NCBI GenBank assembly: GCA_040754455.1
Contig: JBFMCP010000022.1
Span: forward strand, 2,573-54,296
Direction of reading: 5' to 3'
From: Nitrospirota bacterium
Lineage (GTDB): Bacteria > Nitrospirota > Thermodesulfovibrionia > Thermodesulfovibrionales > Dissulfurispiraceae
DNA: 51,724 nt
Shown here: piece after piece, positions 1-8,234 of the stretch
How the letters are laid out: every line of letters begins with the position of its first letter
How positions within the stretch are numbered: position 1 is the first letter of the stretch
Program-made: the position numbers and the translations under genes
Notes under the pieces: model-generated
What the model saw: the letters and a program-made list of their open reading frames with translations, nothing else
Told to the model about the DNA's origin: nothing
The model's database searches: none

Positions 1-295
1 GTCTGAGAGACATATCCAATAAAACAAGGATTGAAACATTCTTCAGAATCTTCTGAGGAGTCTGAAGATGAGTCTGAGAGACATATCCAATAAAACAAGG
101 ATTGAAACATTTTAGGGGCCATGCTATCACCTTTTACAATAAGGCCGTCTGAGAGACATATCCAATAAAACAAGGATTGAAACTCACTATCACAGCAAGA
201 GACTTACAGGACATAGCCCCCCGGTTCGTTGAAGAAAGGAAGCGACTCGATTAAACTTGAGTACCCAAAAACACCAAGATTTAAAGGAGTCGCTT

Positions 296-1159
296 ATGAA
301 GAATAATCGCAGAATCATGCAGAGAAAAGCAACAGGGAAGATCAGAGAGGTATCAGAGGGGAAGGTAACGGTGGAGGTACCCCTGCCACTGGCGTCAGTG
401 CTGATGGGTATGCCTCAGGTGATCCGGGAATTGGCACAGGACATGGGCATCCTGCTGATGACGGCGGTAATGGAATCCGAATGCGCCCTGGGGCTGGATA
501 AGGACGGCAGGAAGCACATTATGGGTTTGCGTGAAGGCGCTACGGAGAACAAGGAAGTGTGCATCGGACTTCTTGAGGACATGGCCCGGCGCGGCTTATC
601 GGTCAGCAAGGATTATCTGTTTGTGCTTGACGGCTCCAAGGCGCTGAGGTCTGCGGTGACGCGTATGTTTGGCAGCACGGTTGCGGTACAGAGGTGTCAG
701 CAGCACAAAAGGAGGAATGTGCGGGAGTATCTGCCGCCGGAGCACCAGGAGGCAATAGATGCACGTATTCGTGCAGCCTATGGCATGCTGGACTATGAGC
801 AGGCAAAGCACTCACTGGAGCTCACGGTGAAATATCTTGAGCGACTGAATCCGAGCGCAGCCGCCAGTTTACGAGAGGGTCTTGAGGAGACGCTCACGGT
901 GCATAGGCTGGGAATAACGGGCCTGCTCAGAAAGACGCTCTGCACGACTAATCCCATAGAGTCCTGCTTCTCGATGACCCGAGCTATTACGGGGCGAGTG
1001 AAGTGGTGGCGTAATGGTGAGATGGTGCACAGATGGGCGGTGGCAGCACTTCTGAGAGCGGAAATGAAGTTCAGACGGATAAAGGGCTACAGGGAAATAC
1101 CGAAGCTGATGGGTGCCTTGGGGCAGAAGAGCGTTGACAGAAAGGAGGTCGCTGCTTAA
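296..1159 (+). pseudogene. IS256 (Mutator-like) transposase with probable in-frame internal deletion
   Basis: Motifs ALGLDKDGRKHIMG, LDGSKAL, QRCQQHKRRN and TTNPIES are present, but the N-terminal segment joins directly to ALG at about 484/485. About 287 aa from ATG 296 (RBS AAGGAG 284-289), versus roughly 400 aa for typical members. Confidence 0.8.
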
Positions 1160-1162
1160 GAT
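1134..1162 (+). promoter_or_regulatory. Outward-facing sigma70 promoter in IS right end
   Basis: TTGACA (1134-1139) - 17 bp - TAAGAT (1157-1162). Confidence 0.7.
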
Positions 1163-1356
1163 AATGGCTGAGCCGCTTCTTCTTCAACGAAACCACGGGA
1201 CATCGTACATATCCAATAAAACAAGGATTGAAACACTACATATCGTGGTAGTTCCCATATATCTCTGTAAAAGATAGGGATCATCTTATCGGTCAGTATA
1301 AGATCGTATATTGATCAAACTCTGTCTAATAAAGGAGAGCCCCGTGTATAAGAGAC

Positions 1357-1402
1357 TTGCACGTCGACAAGGAAAAGGGTATAATGAACTAGTCTGACTA
1401 GT
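1357..1402 (+). promoter_or_regulatory. TA operon promoter and operator
   Basis: TTGCAC (1357-1362) - 17 bp - TATAAT (1380-1385); perfect palindrome ACTAGTC-T-GACTAGT (1388-1402) over the expected TSS; RBS AAGGAG 1403-1408. Confidence 0.8.
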
Positions 1403-1414
1403 AAGGAGCGTACT

Positions 1415-1666
1415 ATGAGAACATGGCAACTGCAAGAAGCGAAAGCACGTCTGAGTGAGGTGATTAGGCAGGCATCGAAAGAAGGTCCCCAGACTATTAC
1501 GATGCGCGGAGAGCCAGCTGCTGTGATTATTTCGAAAGACGAGTACGAACGGCTTAAACGCCCAAGGGAACGTTTTGTCGATTTTATGCGGAAATCGCCT
1601 CTCTATGGGGCGGATATTGACCTGAGACGCGAGCAGACACTAACTCGGGAAGCTGATATTTCATGA
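1415..1666 (+). CDS. Phd/YefM-family type II antitoxin
   Basis: 83 aa; WQLQEAKARLSEVI...GPQTITMRGEPAAVIIS signature; ATGA overlap with the toxin. Confidence 0.93.
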   Translation: MRTWQLQEAKARLSEVIRQASKEGPQTITMRGEPAAVIISKDEYERLKRPRERFVDFMRKSPLYGADIDLRREQTLTREADIS

Positions 1667-2082
1667 GCTATTTGCTCGATACGAATATTATCTCGGAGAC
1701 AATACGACGACAGCAAAATAAGCTGGTAATCGGATGGCTTGAACAGATTCCGGCTGACGCGCTTTTTGTGAGCGTCCTGACCCTTGGAGAAATTCGAAAA
1801 GGCGTTGAGAGGCTTACAGATAAAAAAAGGCGTGAGAAGTTGCGCACATGGCTGGAGCATGATCTTCCGGCGTGGTTCGAGGAGCGGGTGCTTCCAGTTG
1901 ATCTTGCTGTATCCGATCGTTGGGGCAGACTGCTTGCCGAGGTAGGCCGCCCAGTCCCCACCATCGATAGTCTCCTTGCCGCCACGGCATTACATTACGA
2001 ATTGCGGCTGATTACACGAAATGCCAGAGATTTCGATTATCCCGGGCTTGAAGTGATTAATCCTTGGCAGAATGGGACCTGA
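1663..2082 (+). CDS. vapC: VapC-family PIN-domain toxin (ribonuclease)
   Basis: 139 aa; YLLDTNIISE, TLGEI, IDSLLAATA and LITRNARDF retain the acidic PIN catalytic residues. Confidence 0.95.
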   Translation: MSYLLDTNIISETIRRQQNKLVIGWLEQIPADALFVSVLTLGEIRKGVERLTDKKRREKLRTWLEHDLPAWFEERVLPVDLAVSDRWGRLLAEVGRPVPTIDSLLAATALHYELRLITRNARDFDYPGLEVINPWQNGT

Positions 2083-2204
2083 TCTGACTGTACACTGCCT
2101 GTAAGGTCAAGCGCTGATAACTACATTTGAGAGACATATCCAATAAAACAAGGATTGAAACTGAGAATGTGTTGAATGTAGCAAAGTCGCCTCTCGCCAA
2201 AGGA

Positions 2205-3716
2205 TCAGGGGAACAGCTTTACTTGGTCTTTTCTCAGCTGAGCAAAGTTCTCTTTCGGGAAATGAAAAAGGGGTTTGAAAATCCTGTTCATCAGGGTGAC
2301 TAATTGACGGAATTTGTAGGCATCGTGGTGGGAGTCTCCTTTTTGTTCTGAGGCGTACCAGCTCTGCTCGTCGGATATGCGGAGCTCGACCGCCAGGGTA
2401 TGCTGCTGGGTCTTCTTGCTGAGCCGGTCTCTCTTTGCGTAGAGGGGCGTCCCCGGGATCATGACTTTATTTGTTTTGGCGGTGCGGTGAATCGGCAGGG
2501 AAAAGTTTATCTTGCATTGGAACTTCCTATGCCCCAGAGAGGAATGCAGGTTCTCCGCCGCGTTCACGCTCAGGGCTTTGAAGAATTGTTTTGCGTTGAC
2601 AAGCAGCTCTTTCTTCCCGGGTATTTTGTTTTTGCCCTCGCTCCGCGAAAGGCTGACCATCAGCCGCCGTACTGCTTCCATCATGCTTTCCGGGGTATCG
2701 AACAGCGTCTGGGTTATGGAATGAGAGAGCGTGTTTTCCTGCAAAATGACGCCCCTCTTCTGCAGTGCATGGAAAAGAGTGAGGGTGTCATCCTTGCTCT
2801 TCAGGATAAAGGTGATCGCAAGGATGTCCCGTATATCATGAGCTTCGCCTTCCACACTCTTCCCCAGCTTGGTGAACATGCTTTCCGGGCTCTTCAGCCT
2901 GGCTTTAATGTCGGCAATGTCGACCATAACGCCGTCGCCGCTGTTGAAGACCAGGCATCCCTTTTCCGCATCAAACAGTACCGACTCTTTCAGCTTGTGG
3001 AAGAACGTGGAGATCTTGACGAACGCCTTTTGGGCGGACTCGCTTTCAGGGAGGCGGCCCGGACGCGCCCAGTTGTAATTGTAGAGGTCATCAAGACTCT
3101 GGCCCTCTGTTTCGAGAAAGAGCCCGAGCTGTGCATAATCGTTGATATCCTGGCTGTCCTCTTCAATTGACTTGATCAAGTGGCACATTTTGAGAATGGC
3201 GCACGCAAGCTGCTGCCACTCTGCGGGGACGTTCATGTTCTTCCGTTTGAAGCCATAAAAAATGTGAGGGTATTTCCTTGATGAGGCTAGGAGGAAGAGG
3301 TGGCGCGGGTCCTCACTGATGATAGCCCGGAACCTCGCGCTCTTCAATATCGATTCTACTGCTCCGACGGTCTTGAGGCAATGACGGTAAAGACCGGCGT
3401 TCCGTGATGGTATCTTGACGAGCCCTCTGAGTTGACCTTTTACAAAGGGAAACAGCCAGCCGAAGAAGTACTTGTAAACGCAGGTAACGTATCTCTGTGC
3501 CCTCTCTTTTTCACTCTTCTGCAGGCTGCCATCGGCGCGAATATCAAAACCGCGATTGCCCATCATTTTGGTCGCCTGTCTCAGACCTGCCTCATAATCC
3601 ATGGCGTGCAACAAGAGATAGGGGGTCATCTCGGTCCTGTCCAGAACAGAGCCGAAAATATCGTGATACAGCTCCTGCCGTGATGATTTTTGGTTCATGA
3701 GTGATCTCTTACCCAC
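2205..3716 (-). CDS. Divergent RelA/SpoT-synthetase-like nucleotidyltransferase (TIGR04552/TIGR04562-like)
   Basis: 503 aa; KARLKSPESMFTKL, HDIRDILAITFI, SLGHRKFQ, VELRISD and SHHDAYKFRQ occur in the order of RSH SYNTH motifs but are divergent; no HD hydrolase, TGS or ACT domain recognised. Confidence 0.6.
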   Translation of the reverse strand: MGKRSLMNQKSSRQELYHDIFGSVLDRTEMTPYLLLHAMDYEAGLRQATKMMGNRGFDIRADGSLQKSEKERAQRYVTCVYKYFFGWLFPFVKGQLRGLVKIPSRNAGLYRHCLKTVGAVESILKSARFRAIISEDPRHLFLLASSRKYPHIFYGFKRKNMNVPAEWQQLACAILKMCHLIKSIEEDSQDINDYAQLGLFLETEGQSLDDLYNYNWARPGRLPESESAQKAFVKISTFFHKLKESVLFDAEKGCLVFNSGDGVMVDIADIKARLKSPESMFTKLGKSVEGEAHDIRDILAITFILKSKDDTLTLFHALQKRGVILQENTLSHSITQTLFDTPESMMEAVRRLMVSLSRSEGKNKIPGKKELLVNAKQFFKALSVNAAENLHSSLGHRKFQCKINFSLPIHRTAKTNKVMIPGTPLYAKRDRLSKKTQQHTLAVELRISDEQSWYASEQKGDSHHDAYKFRQLVTLMNRIFKPLFHFPKENFAQLRKDQVKLFP

Positions 3717-3884
3717 TCAATATTATAGCTTATAACTGTTGCAGTAAAAACAGATTCAGAGGCACCGGAGGCGTGCCGCCGCAGCAGAGGTATGTTGCAT
3801 AAGCGGCCCTGCCTTGCATCACGACTACTGTACCGTTTATCATTAGTGATTCCGTGATGTGCAGTTGTGAGGAGAACTTCTTTT

Positions 3885-5060
3885 ATGTCCGTTCAGACAG
3901 GACTCGATAGATTCGATAAAGAGTGGCCCAGGATATTGAGAGGCGCGCGGGTGGGGCTGCTGGTGCATCCGGCGTCGGTGGATAGAAGACTCGACCATGC
4001 GACCGATCTCTTTCTGAAATGCAAAAAGTTCGAAATGCGGGCATTCTTCGGCCCGCAGCACGGCATCCGCGGCGAAACGCAGGACAACATGATCGAGTGG
4101 GAAGGGTTCACGGACAAGAGGACCGGACTCCCTGTGTATAGCCTCTACGGCCAGACCAGAAAACCCACGCCTGAAATGCTCGCCGGTGTCGATGTGTTGG
4201 CGATCGATATGCAGGACGTCGGCGCACGCTACTACACTTTTATATGGACCATGGAGCTCTGCATGCAGGCGTGCCTCGAAGCAGGCAGGTCGGTTGTTGT
4301 CCTTGACCGTCCCAATCCCATTGGCGGAACGCTTGTGGAAGGGCCGGTGCTCGATCAGTCATATGCGTCGTTTGTCGGCCAGCGACCGCTGCCTGTACGC
4401 CACGGCATGACCGTGGGGGAAATTGCGCTGTATCTGAAAGAGACCTTTTATCCGGAGCTCGATCTCCACGTTATTCCCGTTAAGGGCTGGAAGCGGAAGG
4501 TATTGTTTGATAAAACAGGGTTGCCCTGGGTGCTGCCTTCGCCGAACATGCCGACGCTGGATACGGCAGTCGTCTATCCGGGCATGTGCCTCCTCGAAGG
4601 CACGATGCTGAGCGAGGGGCGAGGGACGACACGGCCGTTCGAAATATTCGGTGCTCCTTACATTGACCCCGAAGCATTGGTCAAGCGGCTCAAAGAATAC
4701 AAGCTCCCGGGCGCTGTCTTCAGACCCGTGTTCTTTCAGCCCACCTTCCAGAAGCATGCAGGCATGCTCTGCGGCGGGGCGCAGATCCATGTGACCGGCA
4801 GAGAAGAATTCCGGCCTTTCAAGACCGCTGTTGCGGTGCTCAAGGCAGTGTATGACCTCTATCCTGACGATTTCCTCTGGAAGCAACCGCCCTATGAATA
4901 TGAGGCCGAGAAGATGCCCATCGATATCCTCGCCGGCACCGACAGGCTCAGAAAAGAGATCGAAGGCGGTGAACGGCTGAAGCATATAGAAGCGTGGTGG
5001 GGCGAGCAGTGCCGTTCATTCCAGCAGAAGGTAAGGAAGAGATTCCTGCTCTATGCATAG
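3885..5060 (+). CDS. namZ: Exo-beta-N-acetylmuramidase NamZ (DUF1343)
   Basis: FGPQHGIRG, YSLYG, DMQDVGARYYT, LDRPNP, RHGMT, PSPNMPT and SEGRGTTRPFE motifs; ATG 3885 preferred over the ORF-track start at 3867. Confidence 0.9.
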   Translation: MSVQTGLDRFDKEWPRILRGARVGLLVHPASVDRRLDHATDLFLKCKKFEMRAFFGPQHGIRGETQDNMIEWEGFTDKRTGLPVYSLYGQTRKPTPEMLAGVDVLAIDMQDVGARYYTFIWTMELCMQACLEAGRSVVVLDRPNPIGGTLVEGPVLDQSYASFVGQRPLPVRHGMTVGEIALYLKETFYPELDLHVIPVKGWKRKVLFDKTGLPWVLPSPNMPTLDTAVVYPGMCLLEGTMLSEGRGTTRPFEIFGAPYIDPEALVKRLKEYKLPGAVFRPVFFQPTFQKHAGMLCGGAQIHVTGREEFRPFKTAVAVLKAVYDLYPDDFLWKQPPYEYEAEKMPIDILAGTDRLRKEIEGGERLKHIEAWWGEQCRSFQQKVRKRFLLYA

Positions 5061-6972
5061 GTCCCTTATCTGCTTCATCCCCGCCGCCGGTCTCGGCGAG
5101 CGGCTGCGCCCCATAACCAACCATATCCCGAAGCCGCTTCTCCCCCTTATGGGGAAGCCCGTCCTGCAGTTTGTTCTCGAGCGGGCATCCGCACTGGAGG
5201 TTGACGGCATCGGCATCAATCTCCACTATAAGAAGGAACTGATTGAACAATGGATACAATACTCGTCCTTCAAAGAAAGGATAACGCTTTTCCCCGAGGA
5301 CCCCATACTCGATACCGGCGGCGCTTTGAAGAATGCCGAAAGCTTCCTGAGCGGCAGCACCTTTCTGGTACATAATGCCGATATTTTCTCGAATATCGAT
5401 CTGGGGAAACTCCTCGATCGCCATTATGCTTCAGGAAACCTCGCGACGCTTGCGGTGCATGACTGCCCCCGATTCAACCATGTCGCCATCGATGAGAGGG
5501 GACTGCTCAAGGGGGTCGGCAAAAACTATCCTAAACCGGAAGCAGAGCGCTGGGTCGCCTTTACCGGCATTGCTGTCTATGCCCCGGAATTTCTGAAGTT
5601 TCTACCCGAGGGGAAATCGAGTGTTGTCGATGCGTGGCTGAAAGCCGTATATCACGGGCATGCGGTCGGGACCTTCGATGTAAGCGGATGCTACTGGAGC
5701 GACATCGGGACCCCCGCCGCCTACGCCGCCACGGTCCTGGAGGTGATGAAATCATCCGGAGAGACGGTATTCATTCACCCCTCGGTGCAAGGCTGCAGTG
5801 AAGCCTCACTGGATGGGTATCTGGCGATCGAGAGCAGAAGCGTTATTGAACGGGGTAGTGCTCTCAGGAATTGCATTGTGCTTCCTGGGAGCAAGGTCGG
5901 AATGAGAAATGAAAAAAGTAATCTCCCCGTCTCCCCTTCAGTAAAGGGGGGCGAGGGGGGACTCTTATATGAGGATTGCATTATCGGTCCCGGTTTTGTC
6001 GTTCCGGTGAATGAAGCGGAAGGAGGACGTACGACTGATGACGATGTGCTTATCGGTATCGGCGGATCTGACAGAAGGTATTATCGGACAAGAAGAGGCG
6101 GAGAGACCGTCGTGCGCATGCAATGTCAGCCCGGCGACCCTGATTATGCCCGCCATTTGGAGTACACGCGCTTCTTCCGGAAGCATGCTGTTCCCGTCCC
6201 CGAACTGATTGAGGAGCATCCCGCTGCCATGGGCGCGCTCTTCGAGGACCTCGGCGACCTCTCTCTCTACAGCTGGCTGAAATGCCCGAGGAACGGAGAT
6301 CAAATCGAGGAGATGTACCGGAAAGTCCTCGATATCGCGGTGCTACTGCACACGACCGCAACAGATCATGTTTCCGAGTGCCGGTCTCTACAGGAGAGAG
6401 TTTTTGATTACGGCCATCTGCGGTGGGAGACGGCGTACTTTATCGAACGATTCGTTGAGGGATTAAGAAACATTGCCATCGAAAAACCTTCTGTATTGCA
6501 GGACGAATTCCACCGGCTTGCCGCAGCGGTTGATGCCTTTCCGAAGACAATCGTCCACCGGGATTTCCAGTCGCAGAATATTATGATTGTAAAGGGCACC
6601 TCCCCGCGCCTCATCGATTATCAGGGCGCACGGCTGGGACCCTCGGCGTATGATATCGCATCCATGCTGTGGGACCCCTATTATCGTCTCGAAGGCGACA
6701 TGAGAGATCGGTTGCTGGATTATTATGTAGCTGGAATGAGTGGATCCGATGAGCGATTCGATGCTGAGGCATTCAGAAGGACCCTTCTCCCCTGCAGGCT
6801 CCAGCGGCATATGCAGGCGCTGGGGGCATACGGCTTTCTTTCGAAGGTAAAGGGTAAGAAATACTTCCTCAAACATGTGCCGGAAGCATTGCGGATGCTG
6901 AAAGAAGAGACCGCACTTGCAAGAGAGGAATATCCCACTCTGTACAAGCTGGTAAGCAGGCTTTGGGAATAA
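5053..6972 (+). CDS. Fused MurU-like nucleotidyltransferase / AmgK-like anomeric MurNAc kinase
   Basis: N-terminal AAGLGERLRPIT..PKPL, LDTGG and WSDIGT; central hexapeptide-like segment; C-terminal GGSDRRYYR, HRDFQSQNI, IDYQGARLGP and QRHMQALGAYGFL; overlaps namZ. Confidence 0.85.
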   Translation: MHRSLICFIPAAGLGERLRPITNHIPKPLLPLMGKPVLQFVLERASALEVDGIGINLHYKKELIEQWIQYSSFKERITLFPEDPILDTGGALKNAESFLSGSTFLVHNADIFSNIDLGKLLDRHYASGNLATLAVHDCPRFNHVAIDERGLLKGVGKNYPKPEAERWVAFTGIAVYAPEFLKFLPEGKSSVVDAWLKAVYHGHAVGTFDVSGCYWSDIGTPAAYAATVLEVMKSSGETVFIHPSVQGCSEASLDGYLAIESRSVIERGSALRNCIVLPGSKVGMRNEKSNLPVSPSVKGGEGGLLYEDCIIGPGFVVPVNEAEGGRTTDDDVLIGIGGSDRRYYRTRRGGETVVRMQCQPGDPDYARHLEYTRFFRKHAVPVPELIEEHPAAMGALFEDLGDLSLYSWLKCPRNGDQIEEMYRKVLDIAVLLHTTATDHVSECRSLQERVFDYGHLRWETAYFIERFVEGLRNIAIEKPSVLQDEFHRLAAAVDAFPKTIVHRDFQSQNIMIVKGTSPRLIDYQGARLGPSAYDIASMLWDPYYRLEGDMRDRLLDYYVAGMSGSDERFDAEAFRRTLLPCRLQRHMQALGAYGFLSKVKGKKYFLKHVPEALRMLKEETALAREEYPTLYKLVSRLWE

Positions 6973-7031
6973 AGCCAGGACGTATATGTTTGGGCAAAAA
7001 GCCCGGCAAAGAAATATGATACACTTTAGGT

Positions 7032-8234
7032 ATGATTTCGATCGAGCCCTTCAAAGGGAAATCTGTCACCGACCATCATGTTGAAATTGTAGAGCGTAAG
7101 GGCACAGGGCATCCCGACTACATCTGTGACTCAATTATGGACGCCGTTTCCGTGGCACTCTCGAGGGAGTACCTTAAGGAGTTCGGTGCGGTCCTCCATC
7201 ACAATATCGACAAGAGCCTACTCGCAGCCGGTAAGGTAAAAAAGCGGTTCGGCGGCGGCAGAGTGACCAAGCCCATGGAGCTTACCATAGGCGACCGCGC
7301 GACTTTCAGCGCCGGAGGGAAGACCATCCCCGTTGCTGATATCGCGATCGATGCCGCCAAAAAGTGGATTGCCGGCAATCTGCGCTTTGTCGATCCTGAA
7401 AGGCACCTGAAGTTCCGCGTTGTCCTTGCGCCGGGGTCCGAAGAACTGACCGATATTTTCCTGAGGCCCGGGAAGGTGAGAGGCGCCAATGACACCTCGG
7501 CGGCAGTCGGCTACTATCCGCTGAGCCCCACCGAGCGCAGCGTGCTCGAGCTCGAGCGTTATCTGAATTCGAAGCAGTTCAAGACCAAGTTCCCCGATAC
7601 CGGAGAGGATATTAAAGTGATGGGTCTCAGGAAGGGGACGAGACTGGAGCTCACGGTCGCCATGCCGCTTCTTGCATCCTTTGTCGGATCAGAGCGGGAG
7701 TACTTCGAGCGAAAGGGCGATATTCTTAAAGCGATGGCGCGGTTTACTGCTCGCTTTGAGGAATTCGACTCGATTGCGCTCTATTATAACTCCCTTGACG
7801 AGGAAGGCCGCGGCCTCGGCGGTGTTTACCTGAGCCTCCTCGGCACTTCGGCTGAAGATGCTGATTCCGGCCAGGTAGGCCGCGGCAACAGGGTCAACGG
7901 ACTGATCTCGCTGAACCGGCCCCTGGGCACCGAGGCAGCGGCAGGGAAGAATCCCGTGAGCCATGTAGGAAAGATCTACAATGTCCTCGCCCACAACATC
8001 GCGAAAAAGATGTACGAAAAAGTCGGAGGGATACGGGAAGTATATATTCTGCTGTTGAGCAGAATAGGTACCCCGATCGACAGGCCCCAGATGGCCGCTG
8101 CACAGATTTTACCCGAGCGGGGCCGTGATCTCCGCGAAATCTCCCGGAAAGCAGAAGCATTATTCGAGAAAGAGCTGGCAAGAATGCATGAGTTCTGCAT
8201 GGAGCTGAGCAAAGGAAAATATCCGATATGCTAA
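7032..8234 (+). CDS. mat: S-adenosylmethionine synthetase, archaeal-type (Mat)
   Basis: VEIVERKGTGHPD, GANDTS, GEDIKVMG, GQVGRGNRVNGLI and EAAAGKNPVSHVGKIYN. Confidence 0.92.
   Translation: MISIEPFKGKSVTDHHVEIVERKGTGHPDYICDSIMDAVSVALSREYLKEFGAVLHHNIDKSLLAAGKVKKRFGGGRVTKPMELTIGDRATFSAGGKTIPVADIAIDAAKKWIAGNLRFVDPERHLKFRVVLAPGSEELTDIFLRPGKVRGANDTSAAVGYYPLSPTERSVLELERYLNSKQFKTKFPDTGEDIKVMGLRKGTRLELTVAMPLLASFVGSEREYFERKGDILKAMARFTARFEEFDSIALYYNSLDEEGRGLGGVYLSLLGTSAEDADSGQVGRGNRVNGLISLNRPLGTEAAAGKNPVSHVGKIYNVLAHNIAKKMYEKVGGIREVYILLLSRIGTPIDRPQMAAAQILPERGRDLREISRKAEALFEKELARMHEFCMELSKGKYPIC

Follow-up and report, generated by a model that had tools for sequence, protein, structure and literature searches.

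A complete Phd-VapC toxin-antitoxin operon between the last two repeats of a Nitrospirota CRISPR array

A complete Phd-VapC toxin-antitoxin (TA) operon occupies a spacer position between the last two repeats of a CRISPR array in a Nitrospirota bacterium. The array opens a stretch of 51,724 nt, hereafter the window, taken from contig JBFMCP010000022.1 of assembly GCA_040754455.1 (positions 2,573 to 54,296). The arrangement is a novel form of the known association between TA modules and CRISPR loci, and it recurs in related arrays with other TA pairs. We put at about 60% the probability that a promiscuous selfish TA module colonised the decaying trailer end of the array and has been held there by a retention bias, without being a device built by the CRISPR system. 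An initial annotation of the same DNA had named insertion into a decaying array end as the simpler alternative to a protective role; with the retention bias added, this alternative provides the best fit to the evidence.

The window opens within the array, which runs on the forward strand, and the leader and any cas genes must be located past its left end. A 28-nt repeat core (ACATATCC..GAAAC) is present in five copies on that strand, against none expected from 100 shuffles (Table 1), and the identical, regularly placed direct repeats with unique spacers between them are those of a CRISPR array. Four copies pass the gathering score of the Rfam family CRISPR-DR7 (37 bits) on the forward strand, with 51.5-52.6 bits; the truncated copy stays under it. 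The stretch 1198-1234 agrees with the array repeat in the last 28 nt only. The fold of the repeat is weak, a 4-bp AUCC/GGAU hairpin, and the truncated copy retains both this hairpin and the ATTGAAAC 3' end. The terminal repeat carries a variant 5' end, ATTTGAGAG, which is the usual 5' end in the L093 array of the same repeat family. The insert starts right at the 3' end of the truncated repeat and stops where the terminal repeat begins; the sequence common to its two sides consists of the repeats and a 7-nt ACTACAT (1235-1241 and 2119-2125) only. Another 43 nt separate the terminal repeat from the stop codon of a convergent chromosomal open reading frame (ORF). A search of the window with the 28-nt core revealed no second array downstream, degenerate repeats past the array ends amount to weak candidates only, and the window contains no cas or tRNA genes.

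The initial annotation had described an intact TA operon in an 890-bp spacer position between a truncated and a terminal repeat, and the repeats, ORFs and protein families confirm it. The palindrome, ribosome-binding site (RBS) and ATGA coupling are likewise present, the last as a 4-nt overlap between the phd stop and the vapC start (1663-1666). The antitoxin finds its nearest solved relative in 2odk. The PF01850 match of the toxin covers residues 3-124, and alignment with FitB (2h1c), its nearest solved relative, shows conserved acidic residues D6, E43 and D102; N120 stands at FitB's fourth acidic position, and D123 sits in a TRNARDF motif. A PIN domain with conserved acidic residues, preceded immediately and in one operon by an antitoxin of a known family, is the family signature of a type II TA module. 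As for a promoter of the operon's own, the putative -10 box is perfect, and the promoter is absent from the promoter scan because its -35 box fits just three of the six consensus bases. By analogy with the autoregulation of type II TA modules, Phd or the Phd-VapC complex likely uses the palindrome as its operator. The 42 nt between vapC and the terminal repeat contain no predicted intrinsic terminator, and TA transcripts thus probably continue into the Cas6 site at that repeat. The ORFs scanned in the remaining 49.5 kb of the window, which hold housekeeping genes, include no other TA, and PADLOC returned nothing for Phd or VapC.

In families, gene order, 4-nt overlap, protein sizes (83 and 139 aa) and promoter palindrome, the pair resembles modules of the VapBC class that join a FitB-like PIN toxin to a Phd/YefM antitoxin. 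Plasmid records annotate the same pairing of Phd/YefM with VapC, and the window pair differs from such modules only in its location between CRISPR repeats. In the solved FitAB complex the antitoxin FitA is a ribbon-helix-helix (RHH) protein, whereas the window antitoxin belongs to Phd/YefM. The VapC family is huge and unusually conserved, with 7,864 of 8,000 scored candidates at E<=1e-3. Among the 120 matches listed, the relatives of VapC are 81-100% identical, some of them named VapC or FitB, and come from Nitrospirota and other phyla, many on short contigs. In the plasmid collection, 1,544 of 72,556 records carry more distant Phd/YefM-VapC pairs, and 888 of these records are conjugative or mobilizable; at the protein level, every plasmid relative found is less than 60% identical. 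Outside a sister strain discussed below, the nearest VapC among the matches listed is 91% identical, against 84% for the nearest RpoN, a contrast that fits horizontal spread of the TA. As far as sequence comparison goes, the TA belongs with the standard mobile addiction modules and has no particular link to CRISPR.

Relatives of the array were collected by scanning species-representative genomes with the 22-nt 3' half of the repeat, which gave 107 stretches and 106 loci; the flanks of loci L081-L106 extend only ~300 nt. Most of the nearest repeat variants (GTCT...) belong to assemblies of Nitrospirota and Thermodesulfovibrionia. The exact repeat, flanks, spacers or TA of the window are found in none of the 106 loci. 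In blastn, window positions 1-8000 gave repeat-to-repeat matches only; tblastn with the transposase remnant described below, Phd, VapC and the convergent 503-aa ORF gave no match at E<=1e-3 and no credible one at E<=10. The 821 spacers include none that recurs between the window, L005, L032, L054, L017 or L037, and the 106 loci yielded no empty-site allele or orthologous array. The initial annotation had suggested looking for the same TA between repeats in relatives, and that search was negative. With no homologue of the window TA in these loci, the association is with TA modules generally and not with this TA.

A similar arrangement is nevertheless present in relatives, where unrelated PIN-domain TA pairs occupy the last interval of two Nitrospirota arrays, L005 and L017. 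After removal of duplicates (L008, L009, L047, L060, L066), a 9,347-nt gap in L063 and gaps under 300 nt, 19 inter-repeat gaps of 300-4000 nt remained in 14 loci. A Pfam scan covered 23 ORFs from 12 of the 19 gaps, those of L051, L064 and L082 being counted and left out of the scan. L064 is improbable as an array, its 'repeats' carrying 3-4 mismatches and flanking truB and rpsO. PIN TA pairs were found in two of the 12 scanned gaps. The array of L005 has 17 repeats and a last interval of 934 bp between 37/37 repeats, with an RHH and a PIN gene on the array strand; an IS3 element lies in an earlier interval. L017 has six repeats, and its last interval of 1,269 bp holds, on the strand opposite to the array, a PIN gene overlapped at its upstream end by a 107-aa ORF, adjoining a truncated gene for a 23S rRNA intervening sequence (IVS) protein. 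The TA pairs of the window, L005 and L017 are unrelated to one another. The TA-bearing interval is thus the last one in all three arrays, and under uniform placement over 16, 5 and at least 4 intervals, the probability of three terminal positions is at most ~1/320.

TA-type genes are also found among the cas genes of these loci. PIN and HepT-like genes are wedged between cas6 and cas1 in L005 (1621-2954), an MNT and HEPN pair takes the same place in L002 (6939-7645), and TA-type genes stand beside cas1 in L019 (8685-9712), DUF5615/PIN_10 being represented among the TA-type genes of the three loci. The cas order in L002, L077 and L005 is cas3, a large HD protein, Csc2, an unnamed gene, a Cas6b-like gene, cas1, cas4 and the array, a content that we take to be that of type I-D. 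Within 2 kb past the last repeat, TA-like genes occur in two of 56 loci (141 ORFs, each 60 aa or longer, mostly housekeeping); these comparisons of TA density are rough, as ORF length cut-offs differ and Pfam does not hold some TA families.

The favoured reading, a selfish passenger held by a retention bias, would account for the terminal slot as follows. TA modules would colonise CRISPR-cas loci of this repeat family generally, and a cassette may be acquired from another array or replicon when repeats recombine, or may land in a spacer by illegitimate insertion. By analogy with their families, Phd alone or together with VapC would repress the promoter at the 15-bp palindrome; with phd and vapC translationally coupled, loss of the genes would let the labile antitoxin decay and free the PIN ribonuclease to arrest the cell. 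New spacers are expected to enter at the leader only, and units to be lost through recombination between repeats. Deletions between repeats that span the TA would be counter-selected, units distal to the TA could only disappear, and the distal part would shrink to the one repeat that recombination always leaves. The presumed outcome of this ratchet is a TA in the last interval, with the terminal repeat and the last junction of the array anchored as an incidental effect. Colonisation followed by the ratchet thus predicts a terminal position in all three arrays without any assumed benefit to CRISPR. Signs of trailer decay are seen just upstream of the TA, in a deleted insertion sequence (IS) of the IS256 family and the truncated repeat, and the ratchet fits a trailer of this kind.

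Several observations weigh against this reading. The terminal repeats that follow the three TA inserts are near-perfect (34/37, 37/37 and 36/37), and the upkeep of these repeats, including the part of the truncated copy that Cas6 would need, could reflect selection for processing. Counting IVS-protein genes, a gene fills the last slot in six of this lineage's ~13 arrays with a visible trailer, a frequency that may point to a more systematic cause than accidents. The ratchet itself is an argument from logic, and 37-bp repeats are short substrates for recombination. The toxicity and addictive effect ascribed to Phd-VapC derive from their families, and the statement that this TA is not array-associated elsewhere is drawn solely from the 106 repeat-bearing loci.

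A rival proposal, which we consider unlikely, is that the TA is kept as a selected safeguard against loss of the array or locus. Expression would then be coupled to Cas6 through cleavage at the flanking repeats, which would set the ends of the TA mRNA or excise it from pre-crRNA, and loss of Cas6 or of the array would alter toxin activity. Three independent TA pairs of different families in the same terminal slot of related arrays agree with such a role, as do the well-kept flanking repeats, the hairpin and cleavage-site end retained in the truncated copy, the lack of a predicted terminator between vapC and the terminal repeat, the orientation of the window and L005 pairs along the array, and last-slot genes in about half of the lineage's arrays with a visible trailer. 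In the available text of the sources, TA-aided maintenance of CRISPR-Cas is proposed for vapBC of Sulfolobales (PMC4390879) and a similar idea is put forward for type I TA modules beside arrays of Clostridioides difficile (PMC5961336). The L017 pair, by contrast, is antisense to its array, and its mRNA cannot be processed by Cas6. The window TA has a putative promoter and operator of its own, has no homologue in the 106 other loci and, placed at the trailer end, guards the last interval only and neither the leader-side spacers nor the cas genes; the neighbouring part of the array is already disabled by the IS. The initial annotation had argued that a TA inside the array would penalise deletion of the trailer end. 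Recurrence and the terminal position in three of three arrays fit this part of its claim; nothing shows selection for the benefit of the array.

Regulation of the kind seen in CreTA was not borne out. CreTA and CreAP are CRISPR-repressed toxin-antitoxins that guard CRISPR-Cas (PMC9458426; bioRxiv 10.1101/2024.01.05.574328), and according to the available text they resemble the window in being addiction modules with repeat-like elements adjoining the toxin gene. Their antitoxin is a CRISPR RNA (crRNA)-like RNA that guides the effector to the toxin promoter, whereas that of the window is a protein. The 40 nt after each of the remnant and terminal repeats, and the three spacers, were compared with positions 1275-2124, and complementarity was at the level of shuffled sequences (p 0.095 to 0.98); the lack of complementarity between guide and promoter also speaks against a safeguard.

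The genes in the last slots suggest a further proposal, which we regard as somewhat speculative and hold to have only a slim chance of being correct: the last interval of Thermodesulfovibrionia-type I-D arrays may be a cargo slot, in which TA and IVS cassettes between Cas6-cleavable repeats are exchanged through the repeats and expressed or trimmed along with pre-crRNA, the TA acting as a Cas6-sensitive anchor that would put a cost on losing Cas6 or the array end. The last intervals of L032, L037 and L054 hold a complete 23S rRNA IVS-protein gene each, co-oriented with the array. L005, L032 and L054 have an identical repeat and zero common spacers; tsaD and cytochrome c assembly genes lie within ~400 nt after the array of L005 (10398-11979), and L032 (3606-4430) and L054 (1685-2581) carry the same cytochrome c assembly gene, the conserved sequence after their terminal repeat being read as tsaD-like. 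The three arrays are probably orthologous, and the cargo of the slot varies among them, a TA in L005 and an IVS-protein gene in L032 and L054.

In all, six Nitrospirota loci carry a gene or gene fragment for a 23S rRNA IVS protein (PF05635, a four-helix bundle) right after a repeat and co-oriented with it. The complete genes are framed by inverted arms of 22-33 nt, 79-89% complementary, whose sequences differ by locus, and the repeat that follows them is degenerate over its first 8 nt. Both L037 and L054 consist of a bare repeat-gene-repeat unit without spacers. An element known from the intervening sequences of rRNA is thereby also found in another processed RNA locus. Two more gene-bearing stretches were observed. 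L015 has a solitary full repeat and, ~2 kb on (+2033), a stretch that copies the repeat's first 14 nt; between the two lie three ORFs, one with the N-terminal domain of UPF0758 (RadC-like), and the whole is possibly a further gene-bearing unit with pieces of repeat at its borders. L021, a 19-repeat array in a Bacillota-type metagenome-assembled genome, has a 2.9-kb gap near its trailer end (476-2939) that holds a helix-turn-helix and Peptidase_M78 (ImmA/IrrE-like) gene matching PADLOC capP and RmrA, and a gene for a 440-aa protein that falls outside the known families.

The interval before the truncated repeat is no plain spacer and holds a deletion derivative of an IS256-family element (~217-1199). 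The transposase remnant matches just the C-terminal part of the PF00872 and NF033543 profiles, and BLASTP aligns it to an intact 426-aa transposase in two blocks (223/224 and 64/65 identities, 99%), residues 66-202 (137 aa) of the latter having been deleted in frame. The intact transposase is found on a 1,327-nt contig. The element is best read as a young, non-autonomous deletion derivative. Its flanks GGACATAG and GGACATCG match in seven of eight positions and form a probable 8-bp target duplication. Positions 184-216, joined to 1200-1206, amount to ~34 nt that lead directly into the truncated repeat; if the target duplication is real, the array before the IS had a 34-nt spacer-length segment joined to a repeat from which the first 9 nt were already missing. 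Of the sigma-70-like matches in the first 4 kb, the strongest falls within the right end of the IS; it points toward the truncated repeat and the TA and could drive a repeat-containing transcript despite the IS interruption.

This structure bears on whether anything was inserted into a spacer at all. The remnant repeat, TA and terminal repeat might instead represent the edge of a former second array, or an inter-array or trailer region, joined to the present array by deletion or recombination between repeats or IS copies, which we rate as improbable. A left repeat without 9 nt after a spacer-length segment resembles a deletion junction, the IS adjoins this junction, and the 5' end of the terminal repeat is the normal one in L093. 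Elsewhere in the family, the L017 insert has on either side a copy of the repeat together with 147 bp of the neighbouring gene (91% identity), and the L037 insert a copy of the repeat together with 43 bp (86%). Duplicated repeat-plus-flank segments of this kind are typical of recombination between related units, and homologous recombination across the repeat region would be expected to produce them; in L051, arrays are separated by genes. Set against this, the probable target duplication suggests plain insertion of the IS, with the truncated repeat older, the 42 nt from vapC to the terminal repeat are too short for a separate leader, and no second array is seen downstream.

A mis-join at short repeats, putting a TA of high copy number in the community into the array, is very unlikely. 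The source appears to be a metagenome-type assembly, near-identical relatives of the TA are many and often on short contigs, and the flanking repeats are identical over 28 nt. The k-mers of a final assembly, on the other hand, are usually longer than repeats of 28-37 nt, and two unrelated public assemblies (L005 and L017) show the same architecture with other TA pairs. A VapC of 98% identity (136/139) and an RpoN of 99% are each known from a single 29,661-nt contig of the same source. Both proteins are probably on one contig of a sister strain, and the TA would thus adjoin the same housekeeping block in an independent assembly. A 287-aa transposase remnant identical to that of the window is known from two contigs; none is listed on a contig of 29,661 nt, and the left junction is not corroborated in that way.

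Integration of the 890 bp as a giant spacer, by Cas1-Cas2 or through faulty processing of a protospacer, has hardly any probability. The borders of the insert coincide exactly with repeat ends, and long inserts precisely between repeats have been published. According to the available text, SiL-E1 of Sulfolobus islandicus LAL14/1, for which such an origin is proposed as one scenario, is a pseudo-spacer of ~1.9-2 kb with five ORFs, pING1-like, between perfect repeats (PMC3718332), and locus F of S. solfataricus has a pNOB8-like insert of 899 bp between two repeats (PMC4390879). They share with the window hundreds to thousands of base pairs with ORFs in a spacer position. As described there, the pseudo-spacers are fragments of conjugative plasmids between complete repeats, whereas the window has a complete TA operon, with its own regulatory region and unlike a random fragment of an invader, next to a truncated left repeat. 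Integration duplicates the full leader-end repeat; here the left repeat is 9 nt short and the right one differs in all of its first three nt. L005, with 37/37 repeats on both sides, does have its insert between two complete repeats. No donor was found: blastn of the 890-bp insert against 72,556 plasmid and 50,697 phage records gave no match, and the insert is not collinear with a known plasmid or virus.

Table 1. Positions of the features discussed (window coordinates, or coordinates within the named locus)
Feature	Position	Strand	Basis
28-nt repeat core, five copies	10-37, 81-108, 156-183, 1207-1234, 2134-2161	+	sequence match
Full 37-nt repeats (GTCTGAGAGACATATCCAATAAAACAAGGATTGAAAC), three	1-37, 72-108, 147-183	+	CRISPR-DR7, 51.5 bits each
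Spacers	38-71 (34 nt), 109-146 (38 nt)	+	between full repeats
Left part of IS-interrupted spacer-length segment	184-216	+	sequence reading, IS end alignment
IS256-family element, ~980 bp, in-frame internal deletion	~217-1199	+	
Imperfect terminal inverted repeats of IS	~218-249, 1168-1199		inverted-repeat alignment
Transposase remnant, 287 aa	ATG 296 to 1159	+	PF00872 6.9e-23, NF033543 6.3e-43
Promoter-like site TTGACA, 17 nt, TAAGAT (10/12)	1134-1162	+	consensus match only
Truncated repeat, 3' 28 nt identical to array repeat, 5' 9 nt missing	1207-1234	+	
890-bp insert in spacer position, whole TA operon	1235-2124	+	
Putative TA promoter, -35 TTGCAC (3/6), 17-nt spacer, -10 TATAAT (6/6)	1357-1362 (-35), 1380-1385 (-10)	+	
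Perfect 7-1-7 palindrome ACTAGTC-T-GACTAGT, 15 bp, between -10 box and RBS	1388-1402	+	
RBS AAGGAG, 6 nt ahead of ATG	1403-1408	+	
phd/yefM-family antitoxin gene, 83 aa	1415-1666	+	PF02604 2.6e-17, TIGR01552 1.8e-17, PDB 2odk 1.1e-6
vapC, FitB-like PIN-domain toxin gene, 139 aa	1663-2082	+	PF01850 2e-16, FitB 2h1c 1.8e-19
Terminal repeat, 34/37 identical, 5' ATT instead of GTC	2125-2161	+	CRISPR-DR7, 52.6 bits
Convergent 503-aa ORF bordering array	2205-3716	-	weak sub-cut-off TIGR04552/TIGR04562, 4.5e-18
Complete 23S rRNA IVS-protein genes	L032:2033-2491, L037:200-644, L054:168-617		
23S rRNA IVS-protein gene fragments	L017:1335-1567 and 2641-2786, L001:184-370 (ORF 249-500), L025:~1293-1418		

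The chromosome beyond the array offers little that relates to CRISPR. The convergent 503-aa ORF has no Pfam or PADLOC match, and the family to which it is weakly similar, TIGR04552/TIGR04562, is uncharacterised. It is followed by ~48 kb of housekeeping genes that include namZ-like, archaeal-type metK, fmt, rsmB and rpe genes, lptC/A/B, rpoN, the ATP synthase (atp) operon, rtcB and others. The S-adenosylmethionine synthetase (7032-8234) is of the archaeal type (PF01941, 4.4e-161), though the genome is that of a bacterial nitrospirote. The window's RpoN shares 79-84% identity with proteins of Thermodesulfovibrionales, Dissulfurispiraceae and other Nitrospirota, and on the strength of such identities the host is taken to be a Thermodesulfovibrionales-like Nitrospirota bacterium.

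TA modules have been described in or near CRISPR loci before, and the comparisons that follow are limited to the available portions of the cited papers. TA modules occur near CRISPR loci generally, and 23S rRNA intervening-sequence proteins are listed among the associations of CRISPR adaptation modules (Altae-Tran et al. 2023, PMC10910872). In Sulfolobales, vapBC and other TA pairs are interspersed in cas cassettes, and a part in maintenance is proposed for them (Garrett et al. 2015, PMC4390879). Like the window pair, and like those of the related I-D-like loci, they are protein TA modules embedded in CRISPR-Cas loci. They sit among cas genes, whereas the window TA lies between repeats and becomes part of the landscape of repeat recombination. 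Type I TA modules stand directly beside arrays of C. difficile, and a stabilising role is discussed (2018, PMC5961336); these have RNA antitoxins and small membrane toxins and lie beside the arrays, whereas the window TA is flanked by repeats. Integration of prophages into CRISPR loci has also been published (bioRxiv 10.1101/2020.10.09.333658). A full-text literature search, in which few subscription journals were covered, found no account in which array repeats enclose an intact type II TA operon.

The closest parallel to the proposed ratchet comes from sedentary chromosomal integrons, where promoter-bearing TA cassettes penalise excision and deletion (Richard et al. 2024, PMC13108822). In both settings TA units stand amid recombining repeated sites, and the ratchet mirrors the role of the cassettes as the available text gives it. 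Integrons use an integrase and attC sites unrelated to CRISPR, and the likeness is one of analogy and not of membership.

If the ratchet holds, it provides a simple rule for where addictive genes end up in arrays that grow at one end and shrink through recombination between their repeats, and it would explain the unusual stability of some array ends. If Cas6 processing sets the TA transcript, the window operon would be a protein-based counterpart of CreTA. Either way, both features will be mis-annotated by any gene finder or CRISPR caller that breaks up arrays where an insert of this kind lies.

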